Below, in pieces: positions 10,206 to 51,899 of a stretch of 64,000 nucleotides of DNA. Within the stretch, counting starts at the first letter, position 1; every line of letters begins with the position of its first letter. Source of the DNA: Ginglymostoma cirratum (Eukaryota); NCBI GenBank assembly GCA_024137785.1, contig JAHRHZ010000016.1:36043543-36107542 (forward strand), given 5' to 3'. Under the pieces are notes generated by a model. The model ran no database searches. It was not told the origin of the DNA and was given only the letters and a program-made list of their open reading frames with translations. The position numbers and the translations under genes are program-made.

Positions 10206-10495
10206 ATTAATAAAATAGAAAGCTGGCATCCTCTGTTTACCTGTTAAATGAGGAAATAATTTTAGAAAGTACAAACTGTGGCAATCCTCACTGTTTTGTC
10301 AATTTTCTCCTTCTTGCTTCCTCTTTGAAGAGGACCTTCTAGGTTTGGTTTCAGAACGCTAAGTGATTTGCCCAAGTGGACATTATTCATCTGAGTCCAG
10401 ACAGAGCATGAGTCAACTATGTCTTGAGGATACATTGTAGATTAACTTCTTATCATACATCTTCATTAAGTCATGCACATTGAACAAGAATAGTA

Positions 10496-11780
10496 ACAAA
10501 AACAGAAATTGCTAGAAAATCTCAGCAGGTCTGGCAGCATCTGTGGAGAGAAATCAGAGTTAACATTTTGGTTCCAGTGACCCTTCTTCAGAACTGATGG
10601 CAGCTAAGAAAAAGTTGTTTTTTACTCTACAGAAGACAGGGTGGGGGAAGGAGGGAAGAAGTAAACGATAGGTGGCGATAGAGCCCAGAGAGAGAGAAGA
10701 ACAGTTGGAGAGAAAAAGGAGTGGATAACGGTTAGTCCAGGAGAATGAACGGCTACTAATAGGGCTATTAGTGGCTAACAATGGGTTGCGTGTAATAGAC
10801 CATGTGATAACAAGACCTGATGTGTGGGGGTTGGGGTAAGGACATAGGAGGAGATGCTTCAGGCCTTAAAATTGTTGAACTTGATACTGAGTCTAGAAGG
10901 CTGTAGAGTTCCCAAGCAGGAAATGAGGTGTCGTTCTTCCACCCTGCGCTGAGCTTCACTGGAGCTCTGTAGGAAGTCTGAGACAGAGATGTTGGCCAGG
11001 GAACAAGGTGGCATGTCGAAGTGACAGGCAACTGGAAACTCAGGGTCTTTTTTGCCAACAGAAAACAGATGTTCTGCGAAGTGGTCATCCTGTCTACACT
11101 TCATTCCCCCAATGTAGAGGTGACCACATTGTAAATCGCGAATGCAGTAGACTACATTGTGTGAAGTGCAAGTAAAGTGCTGCTTCACCTGGAAGGTATG
11201 TTTGGGCCCTGGATACTGAGGAGGGAGGAAGTGAATGGGCAGGTGTGACACCTTCTTTTTCAGGGGAAGGATCTCTGGGGCTGTGGCAGTTGTTGGGAGG
11301 GAAGGAGGAATGGACCAGGGTGTCCTGGAGGAAACAGTCCTTGCGGAAGGCTGACAAGGGAGGGGAGGGATTATGTGCCTGGTGATGGCATCCTGTTGGA
11401 CGTGGCAGAAATAGCAGCTAATGATTCTCTGGATGTGGATCCTGGTGGGATGGCTGATAAGGACAAGGGGGATACCACCGCTATTGTTGGAGGGAAGAGA
11501 GATAGTGAGGGCTGAAGTGCAGGAGATGGTCCAACTCGCCTGAGGGCCCTATCAACTACAATGCTGGGAAATCCTCGGTTGAGGAAGCAGGTAGACATTT
11601 AAGAGGCCCAGAAGCTGGCATCATCAGAACAGATGCGATGGAAACAGATGAACTGGGAGAATAGAATAGAGTCTTTACAGGAAGTAGGGCATTAGCGTGT
11701 ATACTCAAAGTAACTGTGGGAGTCAGTTTTGGCTTGTAGTAGATATTGGTGGTCAGCCTATTCCCAGAAACGGAAACATG
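10496..11780 (-). mobile_element. 5'-truncated Penelope-like retroelement (RT thumb + GIY-YIG endonuclease + hammerhead-bearing 3' end)
   Basis: ORF 10859-11251 NVVYCIR…CGHLYIG…HFAEHL…PVACHF (GIY-YIG); FLNRGFP and NIYYKP.TDSHSY motifs; TSD ttgaacaagaatagta (10480-10495) / ttgaaggagaatagta (11781-11796). Confidence 0.9.
10552..10598 (-). ncRNA. Decayed minimal hammerhead ribozyme at the Penelope 3' end
   Basis: Minus strand: aucaguu-CUGAAGA-A-GGGUC-ACUG-GAACC-AAAAU-GUU-aacucugau; GAAAC has become AAAAU, consistent with CpG decay. Confidence 0.65.
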
Positions 11781-21779: not shown

Positions 21780-21963
21780 TACATGACTACAGCTCCAAAG
21801 ACAGTGCATGGAGGGCATTCAGTGTATCTAGCATTCTCAAGAGAGTGGAAACATATTTGCATGATAAATTATAGCTGTTTAGTTGTTACACCTTAGAATT
21901 TTTTGGTCTATATTTTTCCCTCGCATGGTCTTTAATTCCAAGGTAGCAGCACCTGCACCTGCA
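21780..21963 (+). repeat. Copy 1 of a diverged ~185 bp local direct duplication
   Basis: Collinear with 22617-22806 (tacatgactacagctccaaaga … ggtctttaattc … cagcacctgca). Confidence 0.85.
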
Positions 21964-22191
21964 TTCAGTCACAATGTTTCTCCAAATGCTATGACCAAAA
22001 CAATCCTTTCGTAATGCCTTCACTAAGCCAGTGGGAAAGCTCCAACAGACTTTCAACAGGTAAATTTCTGATCAGTGCTTTTCTCAAATTTTCATCAAAT
22101 TCTACTATCAACAGTTTGCCTTTTGATTTTCCTACGTTGGGTTACACATAATTAATTATTGCAATTTTGTTAAAAATATTTTCACAAGTAA

Positions 22192-22423
22192 TGAAAATAG
22201 AAGTTGCTGGAAAAGTTCGGCAGGTTTGGCAGTATCTGTGAAGAGAAATCAGAGTTAATGTTTAGGGTCCAGTGACCCTTCCACAGAACTGTTCTGTGAA
22301 GGGTCACTGAACCTGAAACGTTAACTCTGATTTCTCTACACAGATGCTGCGAGACATGCTAAGCTTTTCCAGCAACTTCTGTTTTTGTTTCTGATTTACA
22401 GCATTTGCAGTTCTTTTGGTTTT
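22192..22423 (+). mobile_element. Penelope-derived fold-back element, family A
   Basis: About 95 bp inverted arms centred near 22290; TSD tattttcacaagtaa (22177-22191) / tattttcccaagtaa (22424-22438); arms match 10496-10595. Confidence 0.9.
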
Positions 22424-22616
22424 TATTTTCCCAAGTAAATTGGTTACATATTTTCTCTTGGCATTATATATTTATTATTAGTCTTTATGTATAATTGGTA
22501 TTTAATTCTAGAGTCTGAATATAAAAACTTACTGTGTTCATAGTGTTCATATAATTTTTCAAGGTAAAACAAAGAAACTCTGCAAAGCGAATAATATAGC
22601 AAGGATTCTCCACACT

Positions 22617-22806
22617 TACATGACTACAGCTCCAAAGAGAGTGCGTGGGGACATTCAGTGTTATAAATATCTTACACTCCCACAAGAGTTGAAACATATT
22701 ATCATGGTAAATTGTAGGCGTTTAGCTGTTACATCTTAGCTTCCTTTTGGTCAATTTTGTTCCATCACTTGGTCTTTAATTCGAGGCTAACAGCACCTGC
22801 ATTGCA
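22617..22806 (+). repeat. Copy 2 of the diverged local duplication
   Basis: Collinear with 21780-21963. Confidence 0.85.
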
Positions 22807-23394
22807 CCTTGACAATCTAACTATTTTCATATGTACAATTTAGGAGAGGGGAATAGACTGGTCCTCAACTATAGCCAGTCTCAACACAGCCCCATTGTGA
22901 AGCCCACATGTATACACTTGTTCTTGGAGAGTGCATGCAGTTACTATGTTAAAGGAGGCGGATATGATTGAAGGAGCAGTGTTAGAAGCAAAAAGTAACT
23001 GACAACCGAAAGCACTTGTTATATTACCCAAATTTTAATTTTAATTTTCACCTTACAAGCATATACACTGTCATTTTAAAAATTCAAATTTCTTTTTGAC
23101 AGAGATTTTAGTACTCTTTTCAAGTCATTCATTCATTTTCTTTCTCTGTTTTCTCAGTTCCTCACTGAACATATCCATTTTCTCATTCATTTATTGAATA
23201 TCAGTGTCGGTAACTATCCCTGAATTTATTGCCCATCCTGAACTGCCCTTAAGAAGTAATGGTGAGCTTCTTTCTTGAACCACTGCAGTCTGTGGGGTGT
23301 AGGGATACAGACAGTGCTGTTACAATGGGAGTTCCAGGATTATGACGTTGTGATTGTGAAGGAGCAGTAACACGCAATTTCCTCCCTAATAGGG

Positions 23395-23527
23395 TCAACC
23401 CACAGCAGGAGGATTGTAGTGGTTCAAAAAGGCAGCTCACCACCACCTTCTCAAGGGCAACTAGGGATGGGCAAGAAATGCTGGCCAGCCAGCAACACCC
23501 ACATCCCACAAACGAATGAAAAAAAAT
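23395..23527 (+). mobile_element. L2 3' tail in opposite orientation inside the L2 above
   Basis: ggcagctcaccaccaccttctcaagggcaactagggatgggcaagaaatgctgg…gaatgaaaaaaaa. Confidence 0.75.
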
Positions 23528-24778
23528 AAGGCAACATAGTGTTTGTCACAGAGGGGAACTTGTAGGTTCAGGTGTTTCCATGGATCTGGTTAGAGATGAT
23601 TGGATTTTCACTTGTTGGGGATGGCCATTGCCCGACATTTTTGTAGTATGAATGTTACTTACCACTTGTCAACCTAAGTATAGATGTTGCCCAAGTTTGG
23701 TGCATTTGGACATGGATTGCTTCAATACCTAAGGAGTCCCGAATATGCAGTCATCAACAAACATCCCCTGTTCAGGACTTATGATGGAGGGAAGGTCATT
23801 GACGAAGCAGCTGAAGATGGTTGGGCTTAGGACACTACCCTGAGGTACTCCCACAACAAGGTCCTGGAGCTGAAATGACCGATCTCGAGCAACCACACCT
23901 ATCAGGCTTGATTCCAACCAGTGCTGAGTTTTCCCATGATTCCCACTAGCTTTAGTTTTGTTCGGTCTCCATGATACCATACTTGTCAAATGCTGTCTTG
24001 ATGTGAAAGGCAATCACTTTCACCGCACCTCTAGAATCAGCTTTTTTGTCTGCATGTGGGGCAAAGAATTAGATTAGGAGCACAGTAGTGGAATCCAAAC
24101 TGAGCACCAGTGAGCAGGTTATTGCTGAGCAAATGCTGCTTGGTAACATGGTGGAAAACATCTTCTGTCACTCTTCTGTTGATCAAGAATAAATTGACAG
24201 GATGGTAATTGGCTGACCTAGATTTGTGCTACATTTTATGCACATGGGATACCTGGACAATTTCCTACATCGTCACATAGAGGCCAGTGTTGTAGTTGTA
24301 CTGGAACAGCCTATCTCAGGGTACAGTTAGTTCTACAGCACAAGCCTTCAGTACTATTGCCAAAATGTTGTTGGTCCTATTGTCTCTGCAATATCCAGTG
24401 TCTGCAGGAGAGTCTCCACAATATGTGGAGCGTATTGAACTGTTGTGACTGGCTGGGAATTTCAGCAGGAAGTGCAGATACATCATCTATTAGTACATCT
24501 GACTGAAGATCATTGCAAATGCTTCAGCTTCTTTTTTTGCCATGTGATATAGTTCCCATTGTTGAAAATTGGGATATTTGTAGAACCTCCTCTTCCTGTT
24601 AGGTTGTTTCATTTTCCACCATCATTTCTGATTGAAAATGGCGGCACTCCAGAGCTTAGACCTGATCCGTTTGTTTTAAGATTGAATAGCCCTGCCCATC
24701 ACATGCTATTTCTGCTGTTTGGCATGTATATAGTCCCATACTGTAGATTTACCAGATTGACACCTCATTTTTAGGCAT

Positions 24779-25023
24779 AAATAAAAACCGAAAAAACTGC
24801 TGATGCTGTAAATCAGGAACAAAAACAAAGTAGCTGGAAAGCCTCAGCAGGTCTGGCAGCATCTGTGCAGAAAAAATCAGAGTTAACATTTCGGGTCCAG
24901 CGACCCTTCCTAAGAACTCTGTTCTGTTCTGAGGAAAGGTCAGTGGACCCAAAACATTAACTCTGATTTTTCTTCACAGGTGCTGCCGGACCTGCTGAGC
25001 TTTTCCATCAACGTTGTTTTTTT
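24779..25023 (-). mobile_element. Penelope-derived fold-back element, family A
   Basis: Inverted arms around 24915; TSD tcatttttaggcat (24765-24778) / tcacgtttaggcat (25024-25037); decayed hammerhead cores. Confidence 0.9.
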
Positions 25024-25120
25024 TCACGTTTAGGCATGCCTAGTACTGTTCCTAGCATGCCCTCCTGCGCTCTTCATTGAACCACAGTTGATCTGCTGGG
25101 TTGATGGAAATCATGGAGCG

Positions 25121-25425
25121 AATCATAGAATCCATACAGTGTGAAAAGAGGCCATTCTGCCCATTGAGTCTGCATTGACCCATTGAAGAGCATCCACCTC
25201 ACACCCAGGACCCCAACCTATCTCTGTAACCTGGTATTTACCATGGCTAATTTACCTAACTTGCACATCTTTGGACTGTGGGATGAAACTAGCACACCAG
25301 AAGGAAACATACAGACGTGGGAAGAATGTGCAAACTCCACAAAGACAGTCACCCAAGGCTGGAACTGAACACAGCTCCCTGGAGCTGTGAGGCAGCTGTG
25401 CTAACCACTGAGCCACACTGCTCCC
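25121..25425 (-). mobile_element. HE1-like V-SINE
   Basis: tRNA head (gtggctcagtggttagc), V-domain (gtggagtttgcacattct…ccaaagatgtgca), CR1-type tail. Confidence 0.85.
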
Positions 25426-26974
25426 ATTAATGGGGTGGGGCAGGGGGGGGAGGTTACAGATTGTGGTTGAATCCAATTCTGGGCTGCTAAAGGCTCACAG
25501 TGCCTCATAGATGTCCAGTTTTGAGTTGTTAACCTATTTGAAATGTATTTTGTTTAGCACAGTCATATTGCCACACCACATAAAGAGGTGTCCTCAATGT
25601 GAAAATGGATCTTCATATCCCCAGTAGTTGTGTGGTGGCTACTCTTATCAATATTCTAATGAATGTAGCTGTGACAGTTTAGTGGGGGCAATGTCACATA
25701 TAATTAATCTATTAACGGTTCTCTCACTACCTGCGCAGGCCCATTTAGGCAGCTATTTATGTTAAGATTCAGCCTGCTCATCCAGTAGTGGCAGTACTGA
25801 GTACCTCCTTGTGATCAACATTGAAGACACTGACCAAGAGTAAATTCTGTACATTTACCACCCTCAGTGCTTCTTCCATTTGTTGTTTGTCATGCAGTGT
25901 TACCAATTCATCAGCTGGAGTTAGTGGTAGTTAGTTAATCAGCAAGAAATTTCTTTACCCAGGCTTGGTGCTATAAGGCCTCATGGGTTTCAAAGTCAAT
26001 GTTGAGATCTTCCTGGGAAACTCCCTCCCAACTGGATAATGGGGTCCATTCCACTGGTGAGTCAGAATATACCCAGGGTTGGTGATGCTGATGTTCACAG
26101 ACCTGTCTGTGAATATGACAATGTTGGTATGCTGCTTGACTGGTCTGTGAGTCCACTCTCCCAGTTTGGCACAGGTCCCCAGACATCAGTAAGGAGAATT
26201 TTTCAGGGTCACCCAATATTATTTATGGTGTCCAGGTTATCGCAGGGTGGTTCGTCAAGCAGAGAAAGTTAAGGGTTAATTTAGTAAAGGTGTTCACACT
26301 CATGATGTGTATTGATTTAGTAAATAAACAAAAAATTGTTTCAGTGGTAGATAGCTCAGTAACCAGGCAAGGGACAGATTTAAATCAACAAAGAGACCAG
26401 AAAGTAACAGATTTGTAGGCACAGAAAGCACTTGATCTATGACTCTGTTGTTGGACAAAGGATTGAAACACCAAAGCATAAATTCTGCTCCCCACGGTGA
26501 GTCCCAAGATATGTAGGGCTAAAAATCTCCACTAGCAATCTCGCTTTAATATTTTGGGATGGGCATCTCAGTGATTTGTACATTTTATGAATTAGACTTG
26601 AAAACACATGTTCGGTTAAGGTTTAGATTTTTAGATGGATGATGAGTATAATAGAAAGTGAACAGTGTGTCGTTTTAGGCTGGGGTTTAGAGCATTGAGA
26701 AAACTGAAAATTACGAACAGGCGCTGAACAGATTACAAATAGACTTTGGGGCACCTCTTTTAAGATGTCTTGAGTGGTTATTAAATCTCAGCTCCATGAA
26801 TGAGAGGTAGAGAGGGGATGCAGATCACTGCACTCCTCACAAGGTATGATAACTGCCTCACCAAAGCATTTTGGTCTGACTAGACCTTCTTTGTTTTCTC
26901 TTCATTGCTGTTTTGCTCAATGATTCTTGCAGCAATACATTGTACGTCACAGTAAAGCAACAATTACATTGGTA

Positions 26975-27075
26975 AGACAAAAGCAAAATATTAAGGATGC
27001 TGGAAATCTGAACCGAAAACAGGAAACTCTGGAAGTGCTCCAAAGGTTAGGCAGCATCTGTGGACAGAGAAAAAG
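26975..27075 (-). mobile_element. Diverged single arm of a family A-like Penelope 3' end
   Basis: ggatgctggaaatctgaa…ggcagcatctgtggacagag. Confidence 0.55.
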
Positions 27076-28194
27076 AATGACACTTTGATGTTCTTGTAAG
27101 GAGGCATGACCAATTACTCCAATTAATTACATTAATTCAGGACGGCATCAAAAAGAGGGTCCATTTGAAGTTGTTATTGTTCGTAATTCATTGTTATGAT
27201 AATATGGCTGAAAGGTTTCCCCACCCCTGAATTAGATTAGATAATATTTGATGTTTGATAACAGACCGAGGAACTCATTATTACATATTCAATTCTCATA
27301 CATTGCAGAAAAATAACTAAAAAGATAGGACACAGAATTAGATTATTTTTTAACCTCCTCCCAAAGCTGTCTGTTGCGTTTGTCCTTGACCCATGCACAG
27401 AGTCTGATTTAAATGCTGAGGAACACCTCAACTTTCAACGAATGTAACTGCTATTTCAGAGATCTGTGACAGAAGTGCAGTACTGACATCCTGACAAATT
27501 GTCCTTCCCACTGTATTAAACATAAGATTCACAAGTTTTGAAGTGCATTCCTCTACAGGCTCAGCACAAAATGGTTAAGCTATCCACATGAAGATCCATT
27601 GTCGACACAGCACAAATTGATCCGGGATCAACAAGAGGGCTAGAACGGCATTTGTGTCCCTGAGTGACCGAAATGGGAACTATATTAGCCAGAGTTCTCA
27701 CTGTAAATTATTATCCAGCAATTGAAGCTGGGTGTCAAATGAAGACAGAATTGATTCAGCCTGACTGTGATATTTCTTTACAGTTGAATAAGCTAATTGA
27801 CACATGAATAAGTACCACTTCAGAATGATACCAGAAGGTGCCCAGGAGATTCAATGGGCAAAAGCTGGTTTTCAGGCACTGAAGCTTCGATGAGCATCCA
27901 ATCAAAGAGATGCACTCTGCACATTGGAATCACAGAATGCAGACCAGTGGCAACCGCACTGCTGGTGGGCTGAAAGCTCGAAAGCTAGCATGTGTGGGCT
28001 GTGGTACAAGTTACAGCTGGCCTGCACTTCATAAAGGGGAAGTGCTTTCTGGTTGTAGAAGGTGGTGAAACAATCCCCAAAAAATGCTTCTGAGGAGAAA
28101 TAAAGATTTCAGAGGAGTAGCAGATCAGACAGACGGTTCATATTTTCTCCAATGGAGTGTTTGAAGTCTTAGTCCAGGAAGCAAACGTGAAGAC

Positions 28195-28255
28195 GGTTCT
28201 GAGAAAAGGTCACTCAACCCAAAACATTAACTCTGATTTCTATCCACAGATACTG
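28195..28255 (+). mobile_element. Family A single-arm fragment with decayed hammerhead
   Basis: gttctgagaaaaggtcactcaacccaaaacattaactctgatttc. Confidence 0.65.
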
Positions 28256-28897
28256 TTTTTGTGAGGCAGGTTGGTTTTCCGCAGGGGTAGAGGAGGTCAT
28301 CAAGCCAAACATCATATAAAGGGAATAGAAGCAAAAGCAACAGAGGTTCAGTTCAAGGAGTTTGACCACAAGAATCTGGTTACAGCGCCACAAAAACTTC
28401 AATGATCTCACAACCCTATCTCACAGCTTCTGCATATTTTCAATAATAAGGTTGTGTCAGGCACATTATGTACATCTTGCAACATACTCATTGATCATTG
28501 CCTCTTTCTTACAAGGAAAACATAGCAAATAATAAGGTGGAGACTGGTATGCCTGCTTCTGAATCCCTTGAGGGAGGCAGTGCTGTGAATTTTGGGATTG
28601 CAGTGTTTGAGGCTGATGCAAGTGGCATCACTGAGACTATCCACGGTGACTATGGTGCTGCCTATTCACCTTCTCAAATTCAACTAAATCCCCATCCTGC
28701 TAACTGGGATGAATTGCAAACCATGTGACCATGGACTTGTGCTTTCAAATTATTAAGATTGTTCAACAATATGCTGATTCATTTCAATTCTGGACATGTT
28801 ATAACCCCGAGTGAGGAGGGACAATTGGTTCACATTTTTAATTCAGCCGTTTCTCATTCGGTCTCAACAAGGTTGATTTCAAGAGGATTCTTTCCCA

Positions 28898-28987
28898 ATT
28901 CTGGGGAAGGGTCACTTGAACCAAAACAGTAACTCTGATTTCTCTCCACAGATGGTGCCAGACCTGCTGAGCCTTTCCACTAATTTG
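28898..28987 (+). mobile_element. Family A single arm with decayed hammerhead
   Basis: ttctggggaagggtcacttgaaccaaaacagtaactctgatttctctccacagatg…gacctgctgagc. Confidence 0.7.
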
Positions 28988-29643
28988 TTGCTGCTCATTT
29001 CCTCCATGTCTACCTTTCCTTAATCTAAATGTATTTATGTTTTAAAAGGAGCCAAATTAACCAGGTTTCCTCCAATTTAATTAAAGTAAGTAGGTAAATG
29101 AGAGAAGGTAATAAAATGTGACACACAGATTAGAAATATGAATTGAGTAAAAATCACAGTTGGTTAATAGGCTGTTGTCATGTTTCCTTCTTGATGGTGA
29201 CATAACTGGCTTGTCTGGCTTCCAGGCCTCAGACTAAGAATCTTCCTAGGGCGTCTAATAGCTGTCCCCAAGCTATGACCTTCATATAGCACTAGCAAGC
29301 ACTTCAGCCATTCATACCTTCAGGCCATGGGTAGAAGTTGCTTTTAACTCTGGTCTTTTTGTACATTACTGGTTGGGGCATAATCCGTAGGAAGTAATTT
29401 TCTGCTAAGTGTAGTCAACCCCTCATTAAATCTGTCTCCACAGCAGATCACAGACCAGTTTGTTTTAGCTTATCTGTTTTAAGTCCTTTTAACACCCTCA
29501 GATGTGACATTCCATTATTCCTCTGCAGACTTTGTTCCTCTTAAATAAAAACCAAAAAAACTGTGGATGCTGTAAATCAGGAACAAAAACAAAGTTACTG
29601 GAAAAGCTCAGCAGGCCTGGCAGCATCTGTGGAGTAGAAAACA

Positions 29644-29683
29644 GAGTTAACGTTTCGGGTCCGGTGACCCTTCCTCAGAACTC
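29644..29683 (-). ncRNA. Minimal type I hammerhead ribozyme, intact core
   Basis: Minus strand gaguu-CUGAGGA-A-GGGUC-ACCG-GACCC-GAAAC-GUU-aacuc: 5 bp stem I, 5 bp stem II, palindromic ACGU in place of stem III. Confidence 0.8.
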
Positions 29684-29688
29684 AGGAA

Positions 29689-29728
29689 GGGTTCTGAGGA
29701 AGGGTCACTGGACCTGAAACGTTAACTC
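29689..29728 (+). ncRNA. Minimal type I hammerhead ribozyme, intact core
   Basis: ggguu-CUGAGGA-A-GGGUC-ACUG-GACCU-GAAAC-GUU-aacuc; predicted cleavage after 29723. Confidence 0.75.
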
Positions 29729-30207
29729 TGTTTTCTCCTCCACAGATGCTGCCAGCCTGCTGAGCTTTTCCAGCAACTTTGTTTTAGTTCCTCTTAGACA
29801 GTCACTGAATTTACATCCTTTTAAAGTCTGCTCACTGTTCTGCACTTAAGTTGGACTTCAAGTTTGCAAGTATTTCTACATTAGTTAGCTCACCAATGGC
29901 TTTACTTCATCAGGTTGACGTGACACAGCCTTTGCTTTGGACTGTGGTCTTGGGTCTCGGTTAGATAGTTTACTCCCTGAAATCCTTTGTTGCTCTGTGC
30001 AGGCCACTAAACCAGGCTTTTAAATGTTTGACTGGTATTGGTAGGTGAATTAACCCATGGTCTCTTGGCTGAGAGGTTTCAATCATGACACGTTCACCTG
30101 ATTTTTCATAGCTGCCTTGGAAATTTTCAAGTGCTCTCAAGCTATTTCACAGACTCTCATGAATTGCTCCCAGGATGCTTGTTAGTCTAACATAGAGACT
30201 TTGTAGA

Positions 30208-31667: not shown

Positions 31668-33180
31668 ACCATAAGACTTCAAGACATAGGAGCAGAAATT
31701 AGGCCATTCAGCTAATTGAGTCTGCTCTGCCATTCAATCATGGCTGATAAGTTTCTCAACCCCATTCTCCCGCTTTATCCCTATAACTCTTGATCCCCTT
31801 GACAATCAAGAACCTATCTAGCTCCGTCTTAAATATACTCAATGACATGGCCTCCACAGCCTTCTGTGGCAGTGAGATTCACCACTGTCTGGCTGAAGAA
31901 GTGTCTTCTTATCTCTGTTCTAAAAGGTCTTCCCTTTACTCTAAGGCTGTGCCCTCGGCTCCTAGTGTCTCCTACCAATACAAACATCTTCCGAACATCT
32001 ACTCTCTTCAGGTCATTCAGTATTCTGTAAGTTTCAATTAGATCCCCACTCATCCTTCAAAACTCCATCGAGTATAGACCCAGAGTCCTTAAACATTCCT
32101 CATATGTTCCTTATGTGTCCTTAAACGTTCCTCATAAGCTTTTCATTCCTGGGACCATTTTTGTGAATCTCTTCCTAACCCGCTCCAGGGCCAGTACATC
32201 TTTCCTGAGATATGGGGCACAAAACTGCACACAATATTCCAAATGTGGCCTGATCAGAGCCTTATAGAGCAATGGAAGTACATCCCTGCTTTTATATTCA
32301 AGTCCTCTCAAAATGCCAAAATTGCATTTGCCTCCCTAACTACCTACTCAACCTGCAAGTTTACCTTGAGAGAATCCTGAACTAGAACTCCCAAGTCTCT
32401 TTGCACTTCAGACTTCTGAATTTTCTCCCCATTTAGAAAATAGTCCATGCTTTTATTCTTCTTACCAAAGTGCATGACCTCATACTTTCCCACGTTGTAC
32501 TCCATCTGCCACTTCTTTGCTCACTTTCCTAACCTGTCCAAATCCTTCTGCAGCCTCCCTGTCTCCTCAATACTACCTGCCCCTCTACCTATCTTTGCAT
32601 TGTCTGCAAACTTAGCCAGAATGCCCACAGTTCCTTCATCTAGATCATTAATGTACAAAGTGAAAAGTTCTTGTCCCAACACTGACCCTTGTGGGACACC
32701 ACTTGTCACCGGCTGCCATCCTGAGAAAGACCCTTTTATCCATACTCTCTGCTTTCTGCCAGACAGCCAATCTTCTATCCATATTAGTACCTTGCCTCTA
32801 ACATCATGGGTCCTTTATTTTATTCAGCAGCCTCTTGTGTGGCACCTTGTCAAAGGCCCTTTTGAAGTCCAGGTAGATAATATCCATTGGCTCTCCTTGG
32901 TCTAACCTGCTCATTATTTCCTCAAAGAATTCTAATAGATTTGTCAGGCATGACCTCCCCTTGATGAAGCCATGCTGAATTTGCCCTATTTTAACATGCA
33001 CTTCCAAGTATTCAGAAATCTCATCCTTCACAATGGACTCTGAAATCTTACCCATGAGCAAGGTTAGGCTAATTGGCCTGTAATTTTCAGTCTTTTGCCT
33101 ACTCCCTTTTTAAACAGTGGTGTCACATTCGCAATATTCCAGTCCTCTGGGGCCCTCCCTGACTTGAGCGATTCTTGAAA
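31668..33180 (-). mobile_element. 5'-truncated CR1 LINE
   Basis: QHGFIKGRSCLTNLLEFFEE, YLDFKRAFDKVPH, GVPQGSVLG, KFADNAK; ccataagac tail; closely related to 37906-39400. Confidence 0.92.
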
Positions 33181-34090
33181 GTAATACACAATCTCAGGAG
33201 TGCCTTTACGGGATTTGCAGCTGTAGTCAGAGCCATAGCCTGGCTTGCTATATTGTCTGAATTACCCTCATTTTCAACATGGAGTGTATGGGCTGCAATA
33301 AATCTCACTGGTTTTCACAGTAGTTTCATCTCACTGGGTTTTACAGTAGTTTCCAGTTGGCACAGACACATTCCACCATTTGGCAGCTACATCAGACACG
33401 CTTCTTGATCTCACTTTTCATCTCAGCACCACTCTTTCTATCCTAATGAGGGCTCCCAGAATTTCCTTCTCTCATGGGTGTTAGTTTTTATGTTTGCCTC
33501 TCTAGCTGAATCTTTTCCAATGTGAGAGCCTGCCTTGCCCCTGTCACTCTGTATTCCTCCAGATGTGTTCTTATGGTGAAGGGGATGGAGTTTTTGAACT
33601 CCTTCAGAATATTACTTCACAAAGTTCTGCCGGTTGGCTTCTGTTTTAAATGCCAGTACCCATTTGTCAAAAGCAGGCTATTCAAGCCTGTTGAGTTCCA
33701 GACATCTCTGCTCAGGCCATTTCCTGGGGGCATGTGTCTCACGCTAACTGGTATGTGCTTAATATAGTTATTTTTGCAGCCTCGTAGTAAACAGCACTGT
33801 CCTCTGGCAAGATATAACAAACTTTGTGAGCTTTCCCTGAAAATTTACTCTGAAGTGGTAAGGCCCAATGCTGGACTGGAACCTAACTCTCATAGATACT
33901 AGGAGCAGAGGAAGGCCATTTGACTCTTCAAACTTGCTCCTCTGTTCAATATGATCGTGGCTGATCATTCATCACAACACCATATTCTTGGTGAGAGATA
34001 AAAGGTACTGCAGATGCTGGAGAATCCGAGATAACAAGCATGGGGCTGGATGAACACAGCAGGTCAAGCAGCATCATAGGAGCAGGAAAA

Positions 34091-34124
34091 CTTGACGTTT
34101 CGGTCCTAAACCCTTCATCAGAAA
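34091..34124 (-). ncRNA. Minimal hammerhead ribozyme (one stem II mismatch)
   Basis: uuu-CUGAUGA-A-GGGUUUAGGACC-GAAAC-GUC-aag. Confidence 0.7.
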
Positions 34125-34138
34125 ATGAATCACAAAAT

Positions 34139-34172
34139 TTTCTGATGAAGGGTTTAGGCCCGAAACGTCAAG
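34139..34172 (+). ncRNA. Minimal type I hammerhead ribozyme, intact core
   Basis: uuu-CUGAUGA-A-GGGU-UUAG-GCCC-GAAAC-GUC-aag; predicted cleavage after C34169. Confidence 0.82.
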
Positions 34173-35216
34173 TTTTCCTGCTCCTATGATGCTGCTTGAC
34201 CTGCTGTGTTCATCCAGCCCCATGCTTGTTATCACCATATTCTTGGTTTCTCTCCATATCCCTCGATGCCATTAAAACCTAAAAATGTATCTCTTTCTTG
34301 AATATATTCAGTGACTTGGCCTTCTATGGTAGCAAACTCAACAGGTTCAGCACCTCTAAGTGAAGAAATTTTTCTTCACTTCAGTCCTAAATGGTCTATC
34401 CCATATCCTGAGACTGTGACCCTGGTTCTAGACTTGCCCAACGGGGCAACATCCTTCCTGCATCTAGTCTGTTTAGCCCTGTTAGAATGTTACATGTTTC
34501 AATCGATCCCCTCTCATTCTTCTAAATTCAAATGAAATCAGGCTCAGCTGAACCAATCCCTCCACATAAACGGTCCTGCCATTCCCACTGTTAGTCGAGT
34601 GAACCTCTGCTGCATTCCCTCTCCAATAAGCATATCCTCTTTCAGGTAGAGGGATCAAAATTACACACATTATTCCAGGTACAGTCTCACTGAGTCTCTG
34701 TATAACTGCTGTAAGACATCCCCACTTCTAAACTCTAAATCCTCTTGCAATAGAGTATAACATATCAGTTGTTTTCCTAATTGATTGATACGCCTGCCTG
34801 TTTACTTTCATCGACTAGTGTACATGGAAACCCAGATCCCTTTTTACATCACATTTCCCAACATATCACCATTTAAATAAAACTCTGCATTTTGATTTTT
34901 CACACCGAAGTGTACAACTTCATGTTAACTACGTTATACAGCATCTGCCATGTATTGGCCACACACTCACCATGCACTTTTTTTTGCTTGCTCATGGTTG
35001 CGTGCCCTCTATTTGCCATTTCTGTGCATTTTTGGCAGTGCTGTCTCCATTGTAGCTAATAGAAAAACTTTGCACAGAATGTGCGTTGTATGCACAAATA
35101 AGAACATGACAATAGGAATGGAGTAGACCAAAACTGTCTTCCAAGCCTCCTCCATCATTCAATTTGGCCACAGTTAATCATCAGCCTTAATTCCACTTAC
35201 CCATTCATTTCCCTTA

Positions 35217-37905
35217 TTCATAGAGTAATACAGCAAGGAAACAGGCCCTTCAGCCCAAACTGGTCCATGCTGACCTTGTGCCCACTCAGCTAGTTCCAAT
35301 TGCCTGCATTTGGTCCATATCCTCCTAAACACTTCCCATCCGTATCCCTATCCAAACGTTTTTAAAATGTTGCTATTGTACCTGCCTCAACCGCTTTCTC
35401 CGGCAGCCCATTCCATATACGCACCAATCTCTGTGTGAAGAAGTTGCCCCTCAGGTCCTTCTTAAAACTTTCCCCTCTCACCTTAAACCTATGCCCTCTT
35501 GTTTTCAATTCCCCATCCCTGGGAAATATGCATTCATCCTATCTATGCCCCTCATGAATTTATACATGCTACTAAAGTCACCCATCATTCTCCTAAGTTC
35601 CAAGCAATAAAGTCCTATCCTGGCCAACTTCTCCCTATAACTCAGGCCTACTAGTCCTGGCAACATCCTCATAAATCTTCTTCACACTTTCCAGTTTAAC
35701 TATGTCTTTCCTATAACAGGGTGACCAAAACTGTACACAATACTCCAAGTACGGTCTCATCAACAACGTATACAACTGGAACATAATGTCCCAACTTCTG
35801 TACTGAATGCCTCGACAAATGAAGGCCAGTATGCTAAATGCCTTCTTCACCAACCTGCCCACCTGTGATGCTACTCTCAACGAACTATGTACTTGTACTC
35901 CTAGGTCCCTCTGTTCCACAATGCTCTTCAGGACCTTCTCAGAGATAGTAAGAACTGTAGACGCTGGAGTCAGAGATAACACAGTGTGGAGCTGGAGGAA
36001 TACAGCAGGTCAGACAGCATCAGAGCAGCAGGAAAGCTGACGTTTCGAGTTGGGACCCTTCTGAAGACCCGAAATGTCAGCTTTCCTGTTCCTCAGATGC
36101 TGCCTGACCTGCTGTGTTCCTCCAGCTCCACACTGTGTTAACTCTTCAGGACGTTACCATTCACAGTGTAAGTCCTACCTTGGTTTGACTTTCCAAAGTG
36201 CAACACCTCACACTTATCTGTATTGAAATGCATTTGCCAATTCTCAGCCCACTTCCCCATCTAATTAAGAGCTCTCTGTAATTTTTGATAACATTCCTCG
36301 CTATCAATGACATCTCTTAATTTTGTATCATCTGCAAATTTACTAATCATGCCTTGTACATTCACATCCAGATCATTTATGTAAATAACAAGTAATAAAG
36401 GTCCTAGCACTGACCCCTGTGGTACATCACTGGTCACAGGCCTCCAGTGTGAGAAACAATCATCAACCATCACCCTCTGTTTCCTACCATCGAGGTAATT
36501 TTGAATATAATTAGCTAGCTCTCCCTTGATCCTATGCAACCTCACCTTCAAGACTAGCCTGCAATGCGGGACCTTGTCAAAGGCCTTACTAAAGTCCATA
36601 TTGATAACATCCACTGCCCTACCCTCATCTATCCCTTTAGTTACCTCTTCAAAAAACTCCAAAAGTTTTGTCAGACATGTTCCCGCACACAAATCCGTGC
36701 TGACTATCTCTAATCAGACCTTGACTATCCAAATGTTGGTTGATCCTGTCCCTCAGTATTCTCTCCAATATCTTGCCTTTCACTGATGTCAGGCTCACTG
36801 GCCTGTAGCTTCCTGGCTTGTCTTTGCTACCTTTCATAAACAACGGAACAACATTAGCCACCCTCCAGTCTTCTGGAACTTCACCAGTGGCATAAAATGA
36901 AGCAAAAATCTCTGCAAGGCCCTCTGAAATTTCTTCCCTAGCCTCCCAAAATGTCTGAGGATGGTCTTGATCAGGCCCAGGGGATTTATCCACCTTAATG
37001 CACTTTAAGGCTACAAACACCTCCTCTCTGACAATATGTATGCGGTTCAAAACATTCCCACTTGTTTCCCTTATTTCCTTAGCATCCATTATTCTCTCCT
37101 CCAGTAAACACTGAGGAGAAATATTCATTAAAAATCTCCCCCATCTCCTATGGCTCCACAAATAGATGGCCACGCTGACCTTTAAGGGGACCTATTCTCT
37201 CCCTAGCCACCCTCTCACTCTTAATATAGCTATAGAACCTTTTGGAATTATCTTTAATCTTATCTGCCAAATCCATCTCATTTCGTCCTTTTGGCTTCTC
37301 ATTTCCCTCCTAAGAGTGCGCCTGTACTTTTATTAGTCATCCAGGGACTCACTTAAACCCAATAGCTTAAACGCAATGTATGCCTTCTTGTTTTTCCTGA
37401 CCAGAGCCTCAAAATCTGTCGTCAGCCAAGGATCCCTAAACGTGCCAGCTTTACCCTTCACCCTAACAGGGACATACTTTCCTTGGACTCTTGATAACAC
37501 ACTTTTAAAAGCCTCCCATTTGCCAGTCATTCCTTTTCCTTCAAATGCACTCACGCAATCGACCGCTGCTAGATCCTGTCTAATGGTCCCAAATTAGCCT
37601 TGCTCCTGTTCAGGACCTTAACATGTGGACGTGTTCTATCTTTTTCCCTAACTATGTTAAAACTAAGAAAGCTGTGGTCATTGGACCCAAAATGCTCTCT
37701 GACTGATACTTCAGTCACTTGTCCAACCTCATTTCCTAAGAGGAGGTCCAGTGTTGCACCCTCCCAAGTACAGCCCTCTACATACTGATTTAGGAAACTT
37801 GTTTGAACACATGTGAGAAATTCCACCCCGTCCAAGCCTTTTACACGCTGGGTGGCCCAGTCAATACACAGGAAATTAAAATCTCCAACAAATATTACTC
37901 TGTTA
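35217..37905 (-). mobile_element. CR1 LINE 1, 3' part (ORF2)
   Basis: VDKSPGPD, YRPVSLTS, DFSKAFDKVPH, VPQGSVLGP, KFADDTKL, LEYCVQFWSP. Confidence 0.92.
35938..36141 (-). mobile_element. Fold-back element, family C, centre partly deleted
   Basis: Inverted arms around 36060; TSD ctcttcaggacctt (35924-35937) / ctcttcaggacgtt (36142-36155); interrupts CR1 ORF2. Confidence 0.9.
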
Positions 37906-40900
37906 TAAGACCATAAGACATAGGAGCAGAAATTAGGCCATTCGGCCTATCGAGTCTGCTCCGTCATTTGATCATGGCTGATAAGTTCCTCAACCCTATT
38001 CTCCCACTTTCTCCCCGTAACCCTTGATCCCCTTGATAATCACGAACCTATCTATCTCCGACTTAAATATACTCAATGACCTGGCCTCCACAGCCTTCTG
38101 TGGCAGTGAATTCCATAGATTCACCACTCTCTGGCTGAAGACGTTTCTCCTTATCTCCATTCTAAAAGGTTTTCTCTTTACTCGAAGGCTGTGCCCTCGG
38201 GTCCTAGTCTCTCCTACCAATGGAAGCATCTTCCCAAAATCCACTCTGTCCAGGCCATTCAGTATTCTGTAAGTTTCAATTAGATCCCCTCCCCCATCCT
38301 TCTAGACTCCAATGAGTATAGTCCCAGAGACCTCAAACGTTCCTCATATGTTAAGCTTCTCATTCCTGGGACCACGTTCGTGAATCTCCTCTGAACCCGC
38401 TCCAGGGCGAGTACATCCTTCCTGAGATATGGGACACAAAACTGCACACAATACTCCACATGTGACCTGACCAGAGCCTTATAAAGCCTCAGTAGTACAT
38501 CGCTGTTTTATATTCAAGACCTCTCAAAATAAATGCCAATATTGCATTTGCCTTCCTGACTATTGACTCAACCTGCAAGTTTACCTTGGGAGAATCCTGG
38601 ACTAGAACTCCCAAGTCTCTTTGCACTTCAGACTTCTGAATTTTCTCCCCATTTAGAAAATAGTCCATGCTTTTATTCTTCTTACCAAAGTGCATGACCT
38701 CACACTTTCCCACGTTGTACTCCATCTGCCACTTCTTTGCTCACTATAACCTGTTCAAATCCTTCTGCAGCTTCCCCGTCTCCTCAATACTACCTGTCCC
38801 TCCACCTATCTTTGTATTGTCTGCAAACTTAGCCAGAATGCCCACAGTTCCTTCATCTAGATCATTAATGTATAAAATGAAAAGTTGTGGTCCCAACACT
38901 GACCCTTGTGGAATGCCAATTGTCACCGGCTTCCATCCTGAGAAATACCCTTTTATCCCCACTCTCTGCTTTCTGCCAGACAGCCAGTCTTCTATCCATG
39001 CTAGCACCTTGTCTCCAACACCATAGGCCCTTATCTTACTCAGCAGCCTCCTGTGTGGCACCTTATCAAAGGCGTTCTTGAAGTCCAGGTAGATAACATG
39101 CATTGGATCTCCTTGGTCTACCCTGCTCGTTAATTCCTTGAAGAATCTGAGCAGATTTATCGGACTGACCTCCCCTTGATGAAACCATGCTGACTTTGCT
39201 TATTTTACTGCACACTGCCAAATATTCAGAAATCTCATCCTTCACAATGGACTCCAAAATCTTACCCACTATCGAGTTTAGGCTAATTGGCTTGTAATTT
39301 TCCATCTTTTGCCTTACTCCCTTTTTAAACAGGGGTGTCACGTTAGTGATTTTCCAGCCCTTTGGGACCCTCCCTGACTCTAGTGATTCCTGAAAGATCA
39401 CCACTAACACCTCCACTGTCTCTTCAGCTATTTCCTTTAGAACTCTGGGGTGTAGTCCATCTGGTTCAGGTTATTTATCCACCTTCAGGCCAATCAGTTT
39501 AACTAGCACCTTTTCCTTGGTGATGGCCACCACACTCAGCCCTGCCTCCGACTCTCTTGAATTTTTGGGATATTACTCATGTCTTCCACCGAGAAGACTG
39601 ACACGAAGCAATTATTCAGTTCCTCAGCCATTTCCTTGTTCCCCGTGACTATCTCTCCACCGTAATTTTCCAGTCGTCCAATGTCCACTTTTGTCTCTCT
39701 TTTGCCCTTTATATATCTAAAGACATTCTTACAGTCTTCATTTATATTACTGGCTAGCTTACCCTCATATTTAATCTTCTCCCTCCTTATTTCTTTTTTT
39801 GTTGCCCTCTGATGGTCTTTGTAAGCTTCCCAATCCTCTGGTTTCTCACTGCCCTTCGCCACATTATATGCTTTCTCTTTTGCTTTTATGCTATCCCTGA
39901 CTTCCTTAGTCAGCCATGGTTGCCTCATCCTCCCTGTACCATGCTTATTTTTCCTAGGAATGAATTTTTGCTGTGTCTCCCGAATTACTCCCAGAAACTC
40001 CTGCCATGGCTGTTCAACTGTCTTTCCTGCTAGACTCCTCTTCCTGTCAATTCTGCTCAGCTCCTCCTTCATACCTCAATAGTTGCCTTTATTCAGCTGT
40101 AATACCGTTACCTCTGATTCTATCTTCTCCCTCTCAAATTGCAGAGTAAATTCTATCATATTATGATCACTGCCCCCTAAGGGTTCCTTCACCTTAAGCT
40201 CCCTTATCAAGTCTGCCTCATTGCACAACACTAAATCCAGTATTGCCTGTCCCCTTGTGGGCTCCACCATGAACTGCTCCAAAAAGCCTCCTCATAGACC
40301 TTCCACAAACTCCTTTTCTTGCAATCCACTACCAACATGATTTTCCCAGTCCACCTGCATTTTGAAATCCCCCATGATCATTGTGACTTTGCCTTTCTGA
40401 CACACCTTTTCTATCTCCCGGTGTATCTTACGCCCCAGCTCCTGACTTCTGTTTGGAGGCCTGTACACAACTCCAACTATTGTTTTTTGACCTTTGCGGT
40501 TCCTCAACTCTCTCCACACAGATTCTACACCATCTGACCCTACTTCATTTCTTCCTATTGATTTAATTTCATTTCTTACTAATAAGGCAACCCCAACCTG
40601 CCTACCTTTTCGATCGGATGAATATCCTTGAATATTCAGTTCCCAATCCTGATCCCCTTGCAGCTACGTCTCCGTGATGCCCACCATGTCATGCCTGCCA
40701 ATTTCGATCTGTGCTACAAGCTTACTTACCTTATTCTTTATACTGTGTGCATTCAGATATAACACCTTCAGTCCTGTATTAACCGTCCCTCTTCTCATTG
40801 TCATTCATTTATCCAGTGTGCTTGAAATTTGATTGCTAGCCCTTTCCAAACACTCTGTCCTATTTGTGTCTGTGCTGGAGACTTTAATAACCTCTCCTGA

Positions 40901-42530
40901 GTTCTCCTTCCCCGTTATTTCTTTCATATTTTTCCACGTAGTTGAATCCATCACTGCATATGTTAACCTGCTGCTTTGTTTCCCACTGGGGCAAGTATCA
41001 CCATTCCCTTCCCCATCACTTTCTAGTTTAAAGTCCTGTCAACCAGCCTATTTATCCTTTTCATTAGAACATTGGTCCCAGCTCGAATCAGGTGGGGACC
41101 ATCCCGACGGTACAGATCCTTCCTGTTCCAATACTGATGCCAGTGCCCCATGAAAATGAACCCCTCTTTCCAGCACCACTCTTTTCGCCACGTGTTTACT
41201 TCCCTTATTCTCATGCCTCTATGCCAATTAGCATGTGGCTTGGGTAGTAATCTGGAGATTATAACCCTTGAGGACCTGTTTTTTAATTTGGTTCCTAGCT
41301 CATGATAATCTCTGAACAGGTCCTCTTTCCTAGTATTGCCTATGTTTTTTGTTCTGGCGTGGACCACAACTATTGGATCCTCCCCCTCCCGCTCCAATAT
41401 CCTTTCAAGCTGGTCAGAGATATCCCTTACCCCGACACCGGGCAGGCAACACACCATGTGCGACTCTCAATCCTGTTTACAAAGGATACTATCTATCCCC
41501 CAAAATATAGGATCCCCTACAACTACCACCTATCTTTTTGCTCCCCCCTCTTGAATGGCCTCCCGTACCACGGTGCAGTGGTCAGTTGGCTCATCATCCC
41601 TCCAGCCCTTTTCCTCATCCACACAGGGAGCAAGTACCTCGTACCTGTTGGACAAGGTCAAGAGCTGAGGCTTCTCTGTTCCTGACTGCAGAATCCCTCT
41701 ACCTGCCTCACTTGCAGTCACCCCCTGCTGTCCCTGGCCACTGACCAAATTTGAAGCACTTAATCTACCAGATGTGACTGCTTCCTGAAACACAGCATCC
41801 AGGTACTTCTCCCCCTCCCAGATGTGCCGCAGTGTTTGAAGCTCCGGTTCCAGCTCATCAATTCTGAGCCGAAGTTCCTCGATTCTGAGCCGAAGTTCCT
41901 CGAATAACCAACACTTGCTGCAGATGTGGTCGCTGCAGTTCGCAATGGGATCAGCTAGCTCCCGCATCATCCAGCTACAACACATCACCTGGCCAGCCAT
42001 TTCTACTTAGCTAATTACTTCATTAATTTATATAATTTATTACAATGAATTAATTAAATTTGCTGATACTTCTTGGTATTTTTCAAATTTAGTGCAGATT
42101 TCCTACCAGCCAATCAGGTCACAGACTCCCTGTGACATCACCCCAGTTTTTTTGGCAGCTAGTGCCCCGAGCTCTGGCCCAGTTGTAGTCACCTCTGCTC
42201 TGCTGCTCCTCCCTCCGACAGCTTCCCGCCAAACAAAAGCAGAGTAAAAGAAAGGAAAAAAAAACTCGCCTTATTGATCCTCCACATAGAGTTTTTTTTT
42301 GGTTAGAGGAGGAGGATGGGTGGGAGACACTACATGTGTATTGTTTCAGGTTTAGCCACTGCCAGAATATATGGTTTTACTTACCCAGCAGTCCCCTCGT
42401 GCTCTCCTGGCTCCCGCCGCTCAACAAGGAAGGCTGCAGTCTCACGAGGTAAGTCTTTTATACAGAAGGCTTACCTTCCCGGTTGCCCTCGTGCTTTCTC
42501 CCAGCTCCCGCCGCAAAACAATGAAGTCTA
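37906..42530 (-). mobile_element. Full-length CR1 LINE 2 (5' UTR, zinc-finger/coiled-coil + esterase ORF1, APE-RT ORF2), frameshifted, nested in CR1 LINE 1
   Basis: ORF1 pieces 41530-42000 (C..C…CSKC, leucine zipper) and 41023-41457 (SGNH-like CLPG…DGPHL); ORF2 GVVYRPP, MGDF, LDLVL, GSDH, DFKNAFDKVPH, FADN; ataagaccataagac tail. Confidence 0.93.
41861..41902. repeat. 21 bp tandem duplication (x2) in CR1 ORF1
   Basis: attctgagccgaagttcctcg twice; encodes EELRLRI EELRLRI. Confidence 0.95.
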
Positions 42531-48527: not shown

Positions 48528-48807
48528 AAATAAGAGCAGAGGCATTGACCGTGATCTTCAAACAACCCTGAAACACAAGGATAGTACTAGATGATGACAG
48601 AATTGCCAATGTTACATCTAACGTCAAGAAGAGTGTAAAGATAAACCTAGCAACTACACCAATCAGTTTCACCTTGCTGCAGTGGGAGTGCTCAGAAACA
48701 ATTATCTTGAATAAAATTAACAATCACTTGGATTATTAAGAAAAAATCAGCATAAGGTTTTGTAAAATAATTGTTAGATTGAGCAAAAATCTCCATCATC
48801 TAAAATA

Positions 48808-48905
48808 GAGATAACACAGTGTGGAACTGGAGGAACACAGCAGGCCAGGCAGCATCAGAGGAACAGGAAGGTTGCCGTTTCGGGTTGGGACCTTTCTTCA
48901 GAAAA
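48808..48905 (-). mobile_element. Family C single arm with near-intact hammerhead
   Basis: Minus strand CUGAAGA-A-AGGUCCCAACCC-GAAAC-GGC (cleavage triplet mutated). Confidence 0.8.
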
Positions 48906-48914
48906 ATAAATCCA

Positions 48915-49790
48915 TTCACAGAGATAGCGGATATTCAACTTCAATCAAAATACATTCACACATACTCTTAACAATAAGGAAGCCAACTGGCCATAAAGCG
49001 AACACCAGAAATGCAATGGCAACACAGATTTGAAAGGAGATAACGGGGCACATTATCTGTGTAACTGCTAGCCCTGATCTGACCTGAAGAGAGAGCCTTT
49101 TCAACAACAAGCTTCTGCACAAACATGTTCCCCACAGGCTTCCAGCCCCAAAAAGCAGCTTCAGAACCAAGAACCACAGAGGCTGAACAGAGAAGCTGAA
49201 TCGGTAAGCAAACCAAGGGCACCATCGGAACAAAGGACATCCGAGAGGGGGGAAGCCGACCAAGCGCCATCTGAACAACAGCTTCCAGACATGGGCCCGT
49301 TCTGAACCAAGAGAACCAACGACAAGAAACTCAGCAACTGGGTGCACTTAAAAATCACATTTTCCTCAGTGATGAACTTAAACTCCTGAGATCCCAAAGT
49401 TTCCTACCTACCTAGCAGGGAAGGGAAGGCAGATGGTAACCGAGCATGACACCCCAAGGGAAGAAAGCCTGATTAAAGTTTCTGTGATTAAAACTGCTGT
49501 TTAGATTCTAATAGAAGTTAATCTGTGTTTAATTTAATAGTGAATTTAATCACTGTCCTCGATAATAGATAGTGGTCACTTCACTGTTTAGTGCTTTTAC
49601 CTGTATTTCTTGTATTATACTTAGCTTTTGTTCTTAAATAAACACAGAGATTCTTTTGCCCTGAAACACCTGTCTACTGCTTTCTTCATTTCACATTCCC
49701 TAAATAAGTCTAGTGTCAGAACCAGGGATCTGGGGGTGTTTCGAACCACCTAAAATCCACAAATTACTGAGTGCAAACCAGAAACCTACA
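48915..49790 (+). mobile_element. Putative solo LTR
   Basis: Non-coding insert splitting a CR1 RT; AATAAA at about 49637; ends in …TACA. Confidence 0.4.
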
Positions 49791-51317: not shown

Positions 51318-51525
51318 AATGGGAGTGCCGGCGTTGGAATGGAGTTGGCAAAGTCAGAAGTCACATGACACCAGGTTATAGTCCAATAGGTTTATTTGAA
51401 ATCACAAGCTTTCAGAGCACTGCTGCTTCGTTAGGTGACCTGACAAAGGGGCTATGCTCCAAAAGCTTGTGATTTCAAATAAATCTGCTGGGCTACACGC
51501 TGGTGTCATGTGACTTCTGACTTTA
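51318..51525 (-). mobile_element. Fold-back element, family E (AGCU-type hammerhead)
   Basis: Arms 51350-51436 / 51438-51524; TSD tccagttctct (51307-51317) / tccagttccct (51526-51536); arm consensus cac-CUGACGA-A-GGAGC-AGU-GCUCC-GAAAG-CUU-gug. Confidence 0.85.
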
Positions 51526-51899
51526 TCCAGTTCCCTGAGACAGAAAGGTTAACATTCAAGCAACTAGAAGCAATGTAACAAAGAGCAATGAAACTATTCT
51601 CTGGAGTTTGAGGGGAGGCTGTGGAGGCTTTGGCTTTTCAGTATGGAAAGCTGGGGTAAGATATTGCATTTAGGGTCAGACATCAGAACTGTTTACAAGT
51701 CTTAAGCCACTCTAGGGAGGGAATGAGTCACAGCCCATAATTTCTTCTTCAGCTTTAGTTGTGTCCGCACCACAGGCTAATATTGTACTCTGTCAACATT
51801 TGTGTGGGTAGTGCTAGCTAAACAAGCCATAGACAGCTGAGATGGTCATTCTGACATTGAAAACTTTTAAATAGAAATAATCCCCAGCTGGGTTTTGAA

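Follow-up and report, generated by a model that had tools for sequence, protein, structure and literature searches.

Head-to-head ends of hammerhead-bearing Penelope-like elements in Ginglymostoma cirratum and their probable origin by twin priming

Introduction

Endonuclease-bearing Penelope-like elements (PLEs) have been described with an inverted, 5'-truncated copy set head to head, a palindrome at the joint, a target duplication, a tail of 30-40 bp at one end only, and a putative TATA box plus initiator in the pseudo-LTR (pseudo-long terminal repeat) (passages of PMC3846280 and PMC8557442). These features recur in the DNA discussed here, a stretch of 64,000 nucleotides from Ginglymostoma cirratum (contig JAHRHZ010000016.1, positions 36,043,543 to 36,107,542; the whole stretch is called the window below), in which each of five palindromes consists of two hammerhead-bearing PLE ends set head to head. 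Such a palindrome is a separate insertion of a PLE end-piece, and we consider it probable that both nicked target strands prime reverse transcription and that the two complementary DNAs (cDNAs) are joined head to head.

As far as the cited passages go, the same two papers propose self-priming for the inversion and resolution by the endonuclease for the tail, and the PLE cycle behind inverted repeats and one-sided tails has been called undefined (PMC8557442). Both the inverted architecture and the self-priming idea are already published (PMC3846280; PMC8557442), whereas the counts presented below (about 120 pairs) favor two primed ends. For the anole PLE Poseidon, the cited parts of PMC11167929 report that both strands are nicked and extended in vitro, that two internal start sites define the tail, that a dimer is predicted, and that ribozyme cleavage is dispensable. 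Two start sites defining a tail and a hammerhead at the start of the unit are likewise found here; inverted copies and the coupling of the two sites lie outside the cited parts of that study. Family A, to which three of the window's palindromes belong, differs from Poseidon in its C-x4-C-x2-C linker, its U-rich start sites, and its short microhomology. The available passages of a preprint (10.64898/2026.07.22.740005) do not mention palindromes. Our literature search found no twin-priming account for PLEs, an idea that subscription papers, Repbase reports, or supplements may nevertheless hold.

A further comparison is offered by the 5' inversions of LINE-1, which arise by twin priming: the second target strand primes internally, and the cDNAs join head to head by microhomology within one duplication. 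The two primed ends, the microhomology at a head-to-head joint, and the single target duplication are shared with the copies described here. In LINE-1, however, the second site is chosen opportunistically and little overlap is seen between the arms, whereas here the site is fixed, about half of the insertions are concerned, and the arms often copy the same stretch. Twin priming, if true, would explain the long-puzzling back-to-back PLE copies, and because counts from shark-type copies separate the rival models, an open mechanism becomes testable.

The palindromes and the sample

Throughout, the C of CUGA is position 0 and negative numbers lie upstream; the hammerhead cut is presumed, from established hammerhead numbering, to fall just before +30. 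Three palindromes, with centers near 22290, 24915, and 29686, are the 3' end of family A, while those at 34131 and 51437 belong to families B and C, respectively. In the first, a short arm (22192-22291, minus strand, -5 to about +92) meets a long arm with tail (22291-22427, plus strand, -3 to +133) with a 1-nt overlap, and a 15-bp duplication with one mismatch flanks the pair on the forward strand (22177-22191 and 22424-22438). The second consists of a long arm with tail (24780-24918, minus strand, -4 to +133), a 4-nt insert repeating neighboring sequence, and a short arm (24923-25025, plus strand, -6 to +97), between forward-strand duplications of 9 bp (24770-24778 and 25029-25037). In the third, the long arm with tail (29542-29685, minus strand, -4 to +133) and the short arm (29691-29792, plus strand, -3 to +99) are separated by an 8-nt insert that resembles the element's own 5' end; its 10-bp duplication, again on the forward strand, lies at 29534-29543 and 29787-29796, the first six bases of the right copy being also the element end.

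The family B palindrome (33994-34233) has its long arm on the minus strand (-3 to +128), its short arm on the plus strand (-3 to +92), a 14-nt insert at the center, and a 17-bp duplication (33976-33992 and 34231-34247). The family C palindrome (51325-51529) joins arms of -3 to +109 and -2 to +89 bluntly and without insert, within a weak duplication (11 bp, one mismatch). An asymmetric family A pair is present as well (57384-57558, arms +7 to +133 and +57 to +101), and it keeps a perfect 15-bp duplication (57372-57386 and 57557-57571).

To place these copies among their relatives, we sampled the 4.36-Gb host genome, where one family A motif alone has at least 15,029 exact matches. Of 800 kb in random 10-kb pieces, 414 kb was usable and contained too few copies, and motif-anchored loci were therefore adopted. 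The family A sample comprises 80 fixed-position 10-kb pieces, 90 loci with an exact downstream 38-mer, 30 loci with a downstream 66-mer, and the window; the sampling anchors of these sets are independent of joint structure. A first parse gave 109 pairs and 121 single copies. We kept 105 pairs (three with gaps above 60 nt and one duplicate were dropped), 68 of which lie outside the joint-selected and endonuclease-selected sets; the 29686 copy is a member of the joint-selected set. Single copies with at least 85% identity, away from locus edges and unread bases, numbered 65 after removal of three mis-paired or duplicate loci. Arms shorter than 28 nt or ending before +55 fall below the detection floor. 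Families B and C were each sampled through 30 motif-anchored loci and all flanks. A family A count of short inverted remnants beside single copies was set aside, as it was inflated by joint-chosen loci.

Two primed ends in one insertion

Copies end at about +98 or at about +133, and the interval between the two corresponds to the PLE tail in the cited parts of PMC8557442 and PMC11167929. The pairs combine the two ends with great regularity. Among the 68 family A pairs outside the selected sets, 62 have one long and one short end, five are short-short, and one is long-long (p = 8e-13 against 50%); the mixed combination is likewise seen in 33 of 35 family B pairs and 16 of 18 family C pairs, bringing the three families together to 111 of 121, with nine short-short pairs. 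Single copies are divided between the two ends (31:34, 28:32, and 7:16 in families A, B, and C). Target duplications, with a median length of 14 bp, accompany 81 of the 105 pairs but only 3 of 400 mismatched-flank controls.

The short end deserves a closer look, since an initial annotation of the window held its position to be variable. It clusters at +91 to +101 in pairs and singles alike (Kolmogorov-Smirnov p 0.82, 87 versus 11 ends), and its microhomology to the target is similar in both (mean 1.75 nt in pairs and 2.0 nt in singles, against 0.45 and 0.59 nt when shuffled). The same annotation had pointed to microhomology at the short-arm end near 29786, and rightly so: GTTCCT at 29787 is common to the element end and the target. 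As pairs and singles agree in both respects at their short ends, this hexamer is an ordinary priming signature. From these patterns we infer that both outer ends of a pair are primed ends lying within one target duplication.

At the sequence level, then, our proposal builds on the target duplication (about 14 bp), on 3' ends fixed at two sites some 35 nt from each other, both of them used in a pair, on a common 5' boundary, and on variable joints. One target end would prime at the outer start site (+133) and the other at the inner one (+98), presumably through an enzyme acting as a dimer. Synthesis of both cDNAs would proceed toward the 5' end of the RNA, probably capped and near -4, which is the most frequent stop, and the cDNAs would be end-joined where each stops, leaving joints with microhomology or short templated inserts. 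Their template could be a single RNA, given strand displacement, or a pair of RNAs from one family. Single copies would be events that kept one cDNA, long copies may have been primed at the 3' repeat of a full-length RNA, and short copies may have used the same sites close to an RNA's 5' end. At one locus (L161), the pseudo-LTR repeat reads on into the open reading frame (ORF), as a partial tandem ahead of it; a full-length RNA would thus contain the two start sites close to its 5' end, making short units possible without a separate non-autonomous element.

With confidence only a little above even, we extend this scheme to a programmed, asymmetric twin priming that would be the normal route of PLEs. 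A dimer would cut about 14 bp apart, each end would be served by one fixed start site, and a capped RNA would start exactly at hammerhead helix I, so that the tail, the inverted pseudo-LTR, and the mini-palindromes become one phenomenon. For the existing in vitro system, it predicts that start-site use is coupled to the strand and that the second arm is lost if one nick or one site is removed. The transcript would also begin with the ribozyme, so that cleavage there would presumably remove the cap.

The 5' boundary near the hammerhead

In all five palindromes the symmetry axis had been placed within 15 nt upstream of CUGA, which the arm starts confirm. The broader notion of a pinned inversion point holds for the 5' end of the single arm and fails for the axis. 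The boundary is sharp (-3 to -5): family A arms start at -7 to -3 in 80 of 201 cases, compared with 2 to 13 per 5-nt bin from +3 to +67, far more than chance would give, but both arms start at -7 to -1 in only 16 of the 68 pairs without joint selection, one arm does so in 37, and neither in 15. The same boundary is found in 33 of 65 single family A copies, and long copies have head-to-head joints hundreds of bases upstream. Restricting attention to undeleted copies selects the symmetric minority, as the intact duplication of the asymmetric 57384-57558 pair illustrates. Since the boundary is reached by one arm or by both, and by singles too, the fixed feature is the template's 5' end, and the axis follows only if both arms reach it. 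That reverse transcription ends at a defined boundary, as the initial annotation supposed, is supported by this clustering. The ribozyme cut itself (+30) is excluded as the boundary: the clustered starts lie upstream of the core, and only 3 of 201 arms start at +28 to +32, from which it follows that cleaved RNA is not the usual template.

The boundary is likely a transcription start, judging by its setting about 30 nt downstream of the sole TATA-like box in three families. The only upstream TATA-like hexamer lies at -33 in family A (2134 nt scanned), -35 in family B (450 nt), and -38 in family C (213 nt), and an initiator consensus with its A at -4 is present in families A and B. Family B arm starts peak at -3 (16 of 84). 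A G stands before the arm in 16 of 29 cases with the end at -4 and in 16 of 33 with the end at -3, and three single copies carry one extra G; as a cap-derived signature this is suggestive, is confounded by the partner arm, and is not relied on. A putative TATA box and initiator are recorded in a rotifer pseudo-LTR in the cited part of PMC3846280.

Priming at two ends could also hold with a boundary set otherwise, either by the ribozyme fold (an exonuclease being blocked, or copying dropping off, at the base of helix I) or by a splice acceptor, but we regard this as unlikely. Position -4 is indeed the first base of helix I in families A and B, and family A has CAG at -5 to -3 with a branch-point-like motif upstream; moreover, cited passages map an intron end of D. 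virilis to the 5' end of helix I (PMC4209133) and describe the D. virilis Penelope promoter as TATA-less (PMC2377424). Against a splice acceptor, family B lacks AG at the boundary, and arms end at both -4 and -3, which is incompatible with a spliced end. What counters a boundary set by the fold is that all three families have a single TATA-like box some 30 nt upstream, and that the family C peak at -9 to -7 tracks this box rather than the helix.

Alternative origins of the second arm

The main competitor of two-ended priming is the snap-back proposed in the initial annotation, in which the cDNA reaches the end of the RNA, folds, and copies itself, with asymmetry added when one side is deleted later, when the tail is trimmed at integration, or when the center inverts. 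We give this a small but real chance. An arm copied from its own cDNA cannot extend further 3' than the template cDNA, and as this first cDNA would bear the loop and extend farthest in the 5' direction, the polarity of truncation tests the idea. In its favor, the passages cited above put forward self-priming for the palindromes at PLE junctions and resolution by the endonuclease for the tail, a fold-back-type center (CAG-AA-CTG) occurs in 78 of 1398 exact symmetric genome copies, and many joint inserts copy the adjacent 5' end. Yet among 81 asymmetric pairs, the tail arm is the more 5'-truncated one in 48 (23, 15, and 10 in families A, B, and C) and the short arm in 33 (18, 11, and 4). Fold-back-type joints (30 rows, four dropped for unread bases) have the loop on the shorter arm in 17 of 26 cases and on the longer in nine, and 11 of the 17 with the wrong polarity have a duplication scoring at least 10. 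Some arms do not overlap at all: in locus L009, -3 to 93 is joined to 97 to 128 inside a 14-bp duplication, and hence neither arm was copied from the other. In three further loci (L073, L194, L207) the arms within one duplication have little or no sequence in common, and L216 joins -811 to 94 with 82 to 131. About half of the singles end at the inner site, yet short-short pairs make up just nine of 121, and asymmetry does not rise with arm divergence as later deletion would have it (rho -0.32, n = 58; confounded by CpG-rich sites). Polarity and non-overlapping arms together thus speak against snap-back as the origin of the second arm. Brief fold-back or re-priming of a few bases does occur, as joint inserts only, for inserts at many loci, 29686 included, copy the element's own 5' end.

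A preformed master palindrome moving as a unit, in the manner of a miniature inverted-repeat transposable element (MITE), is extremely improbable and was rejected because the copies do not share one internal structure and polarity. Two recurrent centers (183 and 78 of the 1398 copies) and the uniform duplication length would suit it, but 40 distinct centers occur among the first 50 copies, the recurrent centers bear the tail on either side (7 versus 10 and 8 versus 13), and single and long copies have the same ends. The loops thus are not identical across copies, and the suggestion that each palindrome is made de novo is borne out by individual duplications, varied centers, and a tail on either side of recurrent joints. 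Gene conversion between the arms after insertion had been named as another source of their similarity, with some doubt, and this doubt was justified; we find it very unlikely. Across 96 pairs, 13 rare variants are found on both arms (mean 3.3 and maximum 10 in 500 permutations) and the arms of one pair differ by 8.1% versus 8.95% for shuffled partners (minimum 8.43%), an excess that homogenization could produce but that a common source RNA accounts for as well. However, 334 rare variants sit on one arm, shared variants make up less than 4%, and there is no gradient toward the axis (shared/one-arm counts 2/59, 5/92, 5/98, and 1/85). The private mutations that both arms were said to share are accordingly real for CUGUG, read on both arms of the 22192 copy, but not as a rule, and arms are closer to each other than to other copies only slightly. 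Of 33 genome palindromes with CUGUG on one arm, none repeats this variant, which lies 7 nt from the boundary, on the partner arm (the search pattern required exact flanks and would miss the window copy). CUGUG is read in a parent-type copy (L097) as well, so the window pair may have it from the source element. At subfamily site +46, arms agree in 77 of 86 C/T pairs, and a weak same-source test on long pairs placed shared derived sites above the median in 5/6 and at first rank in 1/6. The arms, by their sequences, seem to begin alike and diverge later.

Several points weigh against two-ended priming as we describe it. Arms that barely overlap are a minority; most pairs overlap widely, and where the overlap is complete, strand displacement or another RNA must be invoked, both hypothetical. 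In the cited part of PMC11167929, the anole enzyme uses the same start sites on both strands and no primer homology, whereas short microhomology is found here. Among the fold-back-type joints (L366-L394), 14 of 26 short arms are unusually short and end before +90, off the standard site, for which two-ended priming offers no explanation; the minimal-joint class has 5 of 17 such arms, and most of them are on the side that bears the loop. Tail arms stop near the inner start site in modest excess (9 at +80 to +99, 8 at +50 to +79). Individual asymmetric copies can be accounted for by loss of sequence on one side after insertion (L209 has this appearance), and inversion of the center by recombination between arms could scramble loop polarity. 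As to the boundary, family C has no perfect initiator and shows two peaks of arm starts, at -9 to -7 (7/38) and at -3 (7/38), and the start-site claim comes from sequence, the public RNA runs being contigs only with their RNA status mostly guessed.

Two observations on joints stand apart. At loci L001-L013, a recurrent insert re-copies +9 to 0 after one extra C, in both polarities, which may reflect a cap-templated C followed by realignment. Head-to-head joints between families are found in 3 of 206 pairs (L087, L143, L351), none with a common duplication, and are probably nested insertions into another element's repeat.

The elements and their surroundings

Inverted pairs with a one-sided tail match the architecture of endonuclease-bearing PLEs, and the element proteins match cartilaginous-fish records best. 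The sequence upstream of the family A end was obtained from 30 endonuclease-bearing loci, and the reference layout reads reverse transcriptase (RT), C-x4-C-x2-C linker, and GIY-YIG endonuclease region, the order of RT before a C-terminal endonuclease being that of the parent frames; VYCIRCSQCGLLYIG occurs in most of the loci listed among these 30 (histidines placed without formal alignment). The RT match of L087 to RVT_1 in Pfam (E 4.5e-4) is below the cut-off, while a close homolog (P0010) exceeds the cut-off for both RVT_1 and GIY-YIG; the decayed endonuclease frame of the window by itself has no Pfam match. The linker suggests a Neptune/Nematis-like element, a clade defined in the cited part of PMC8557442 by a CX2-5CxxC linker before the endonuclease. 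The Penelope/Poseidon clade, which lacks this linker zinc finger, was rejected for family A. A ray protein annotated as a kinase-domain isoform (P0002) is 58% identical to the PLE RT region and is possibly an exonized or mis-annotated element.

The hammerhead assignment follows from the sequences of families A, B, and C, which carry the core boxes of the minimal hammerhead, helix II, a palindromic helix III, and a short helix I. Metazoan PLE minimal hammerheads, in the cited part of PMC4209133, have the same CUGANGA core, the extra base before helix II, and a palindromic ACGU or AGCU helix III, and dual motifs on opposite strands are recorded there; what differs here is the boundary, upstream of the core and not at the cut. 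Helices I and II are predicted to form in a 144-nt arm and not in shorter pieces. Folding of single arms gave z-scores of -0.34 to +1.01, no support beyond shuffles, and an Rfam search returned weak microRNA-hairpin matches only and no hammerhead.

Elsewhere in the window, the minus strand carries a parent-type, 5'-truncated family A copy (10492-11548) that comprises a decayed GIY-YIG frame (10859-11548), a 3' untranslated region, the hammerhead from 10592, and an end at +99. Single family A copies on the plus strand are found at 28196-28255 (start -3) and 28896-28989 (start -5). A stop-free stretch at 48916-49347 (minus strand) overlaps other repeats, which include hammerhead ends resembling families B and C (48802-48905 and 59057-59132). 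Two related repeat copies of about 200 nt (21780-21980 and 22600-22800) lie on either side of the 22290 palindrome. Finally, the region 32444-42006 contains several decayed LINE frames (RT, AP endonuclease, and an esterase-like ORF1 piece), which we take from their motifs to be of CR1/L2 type, and shows a strong GC skew.

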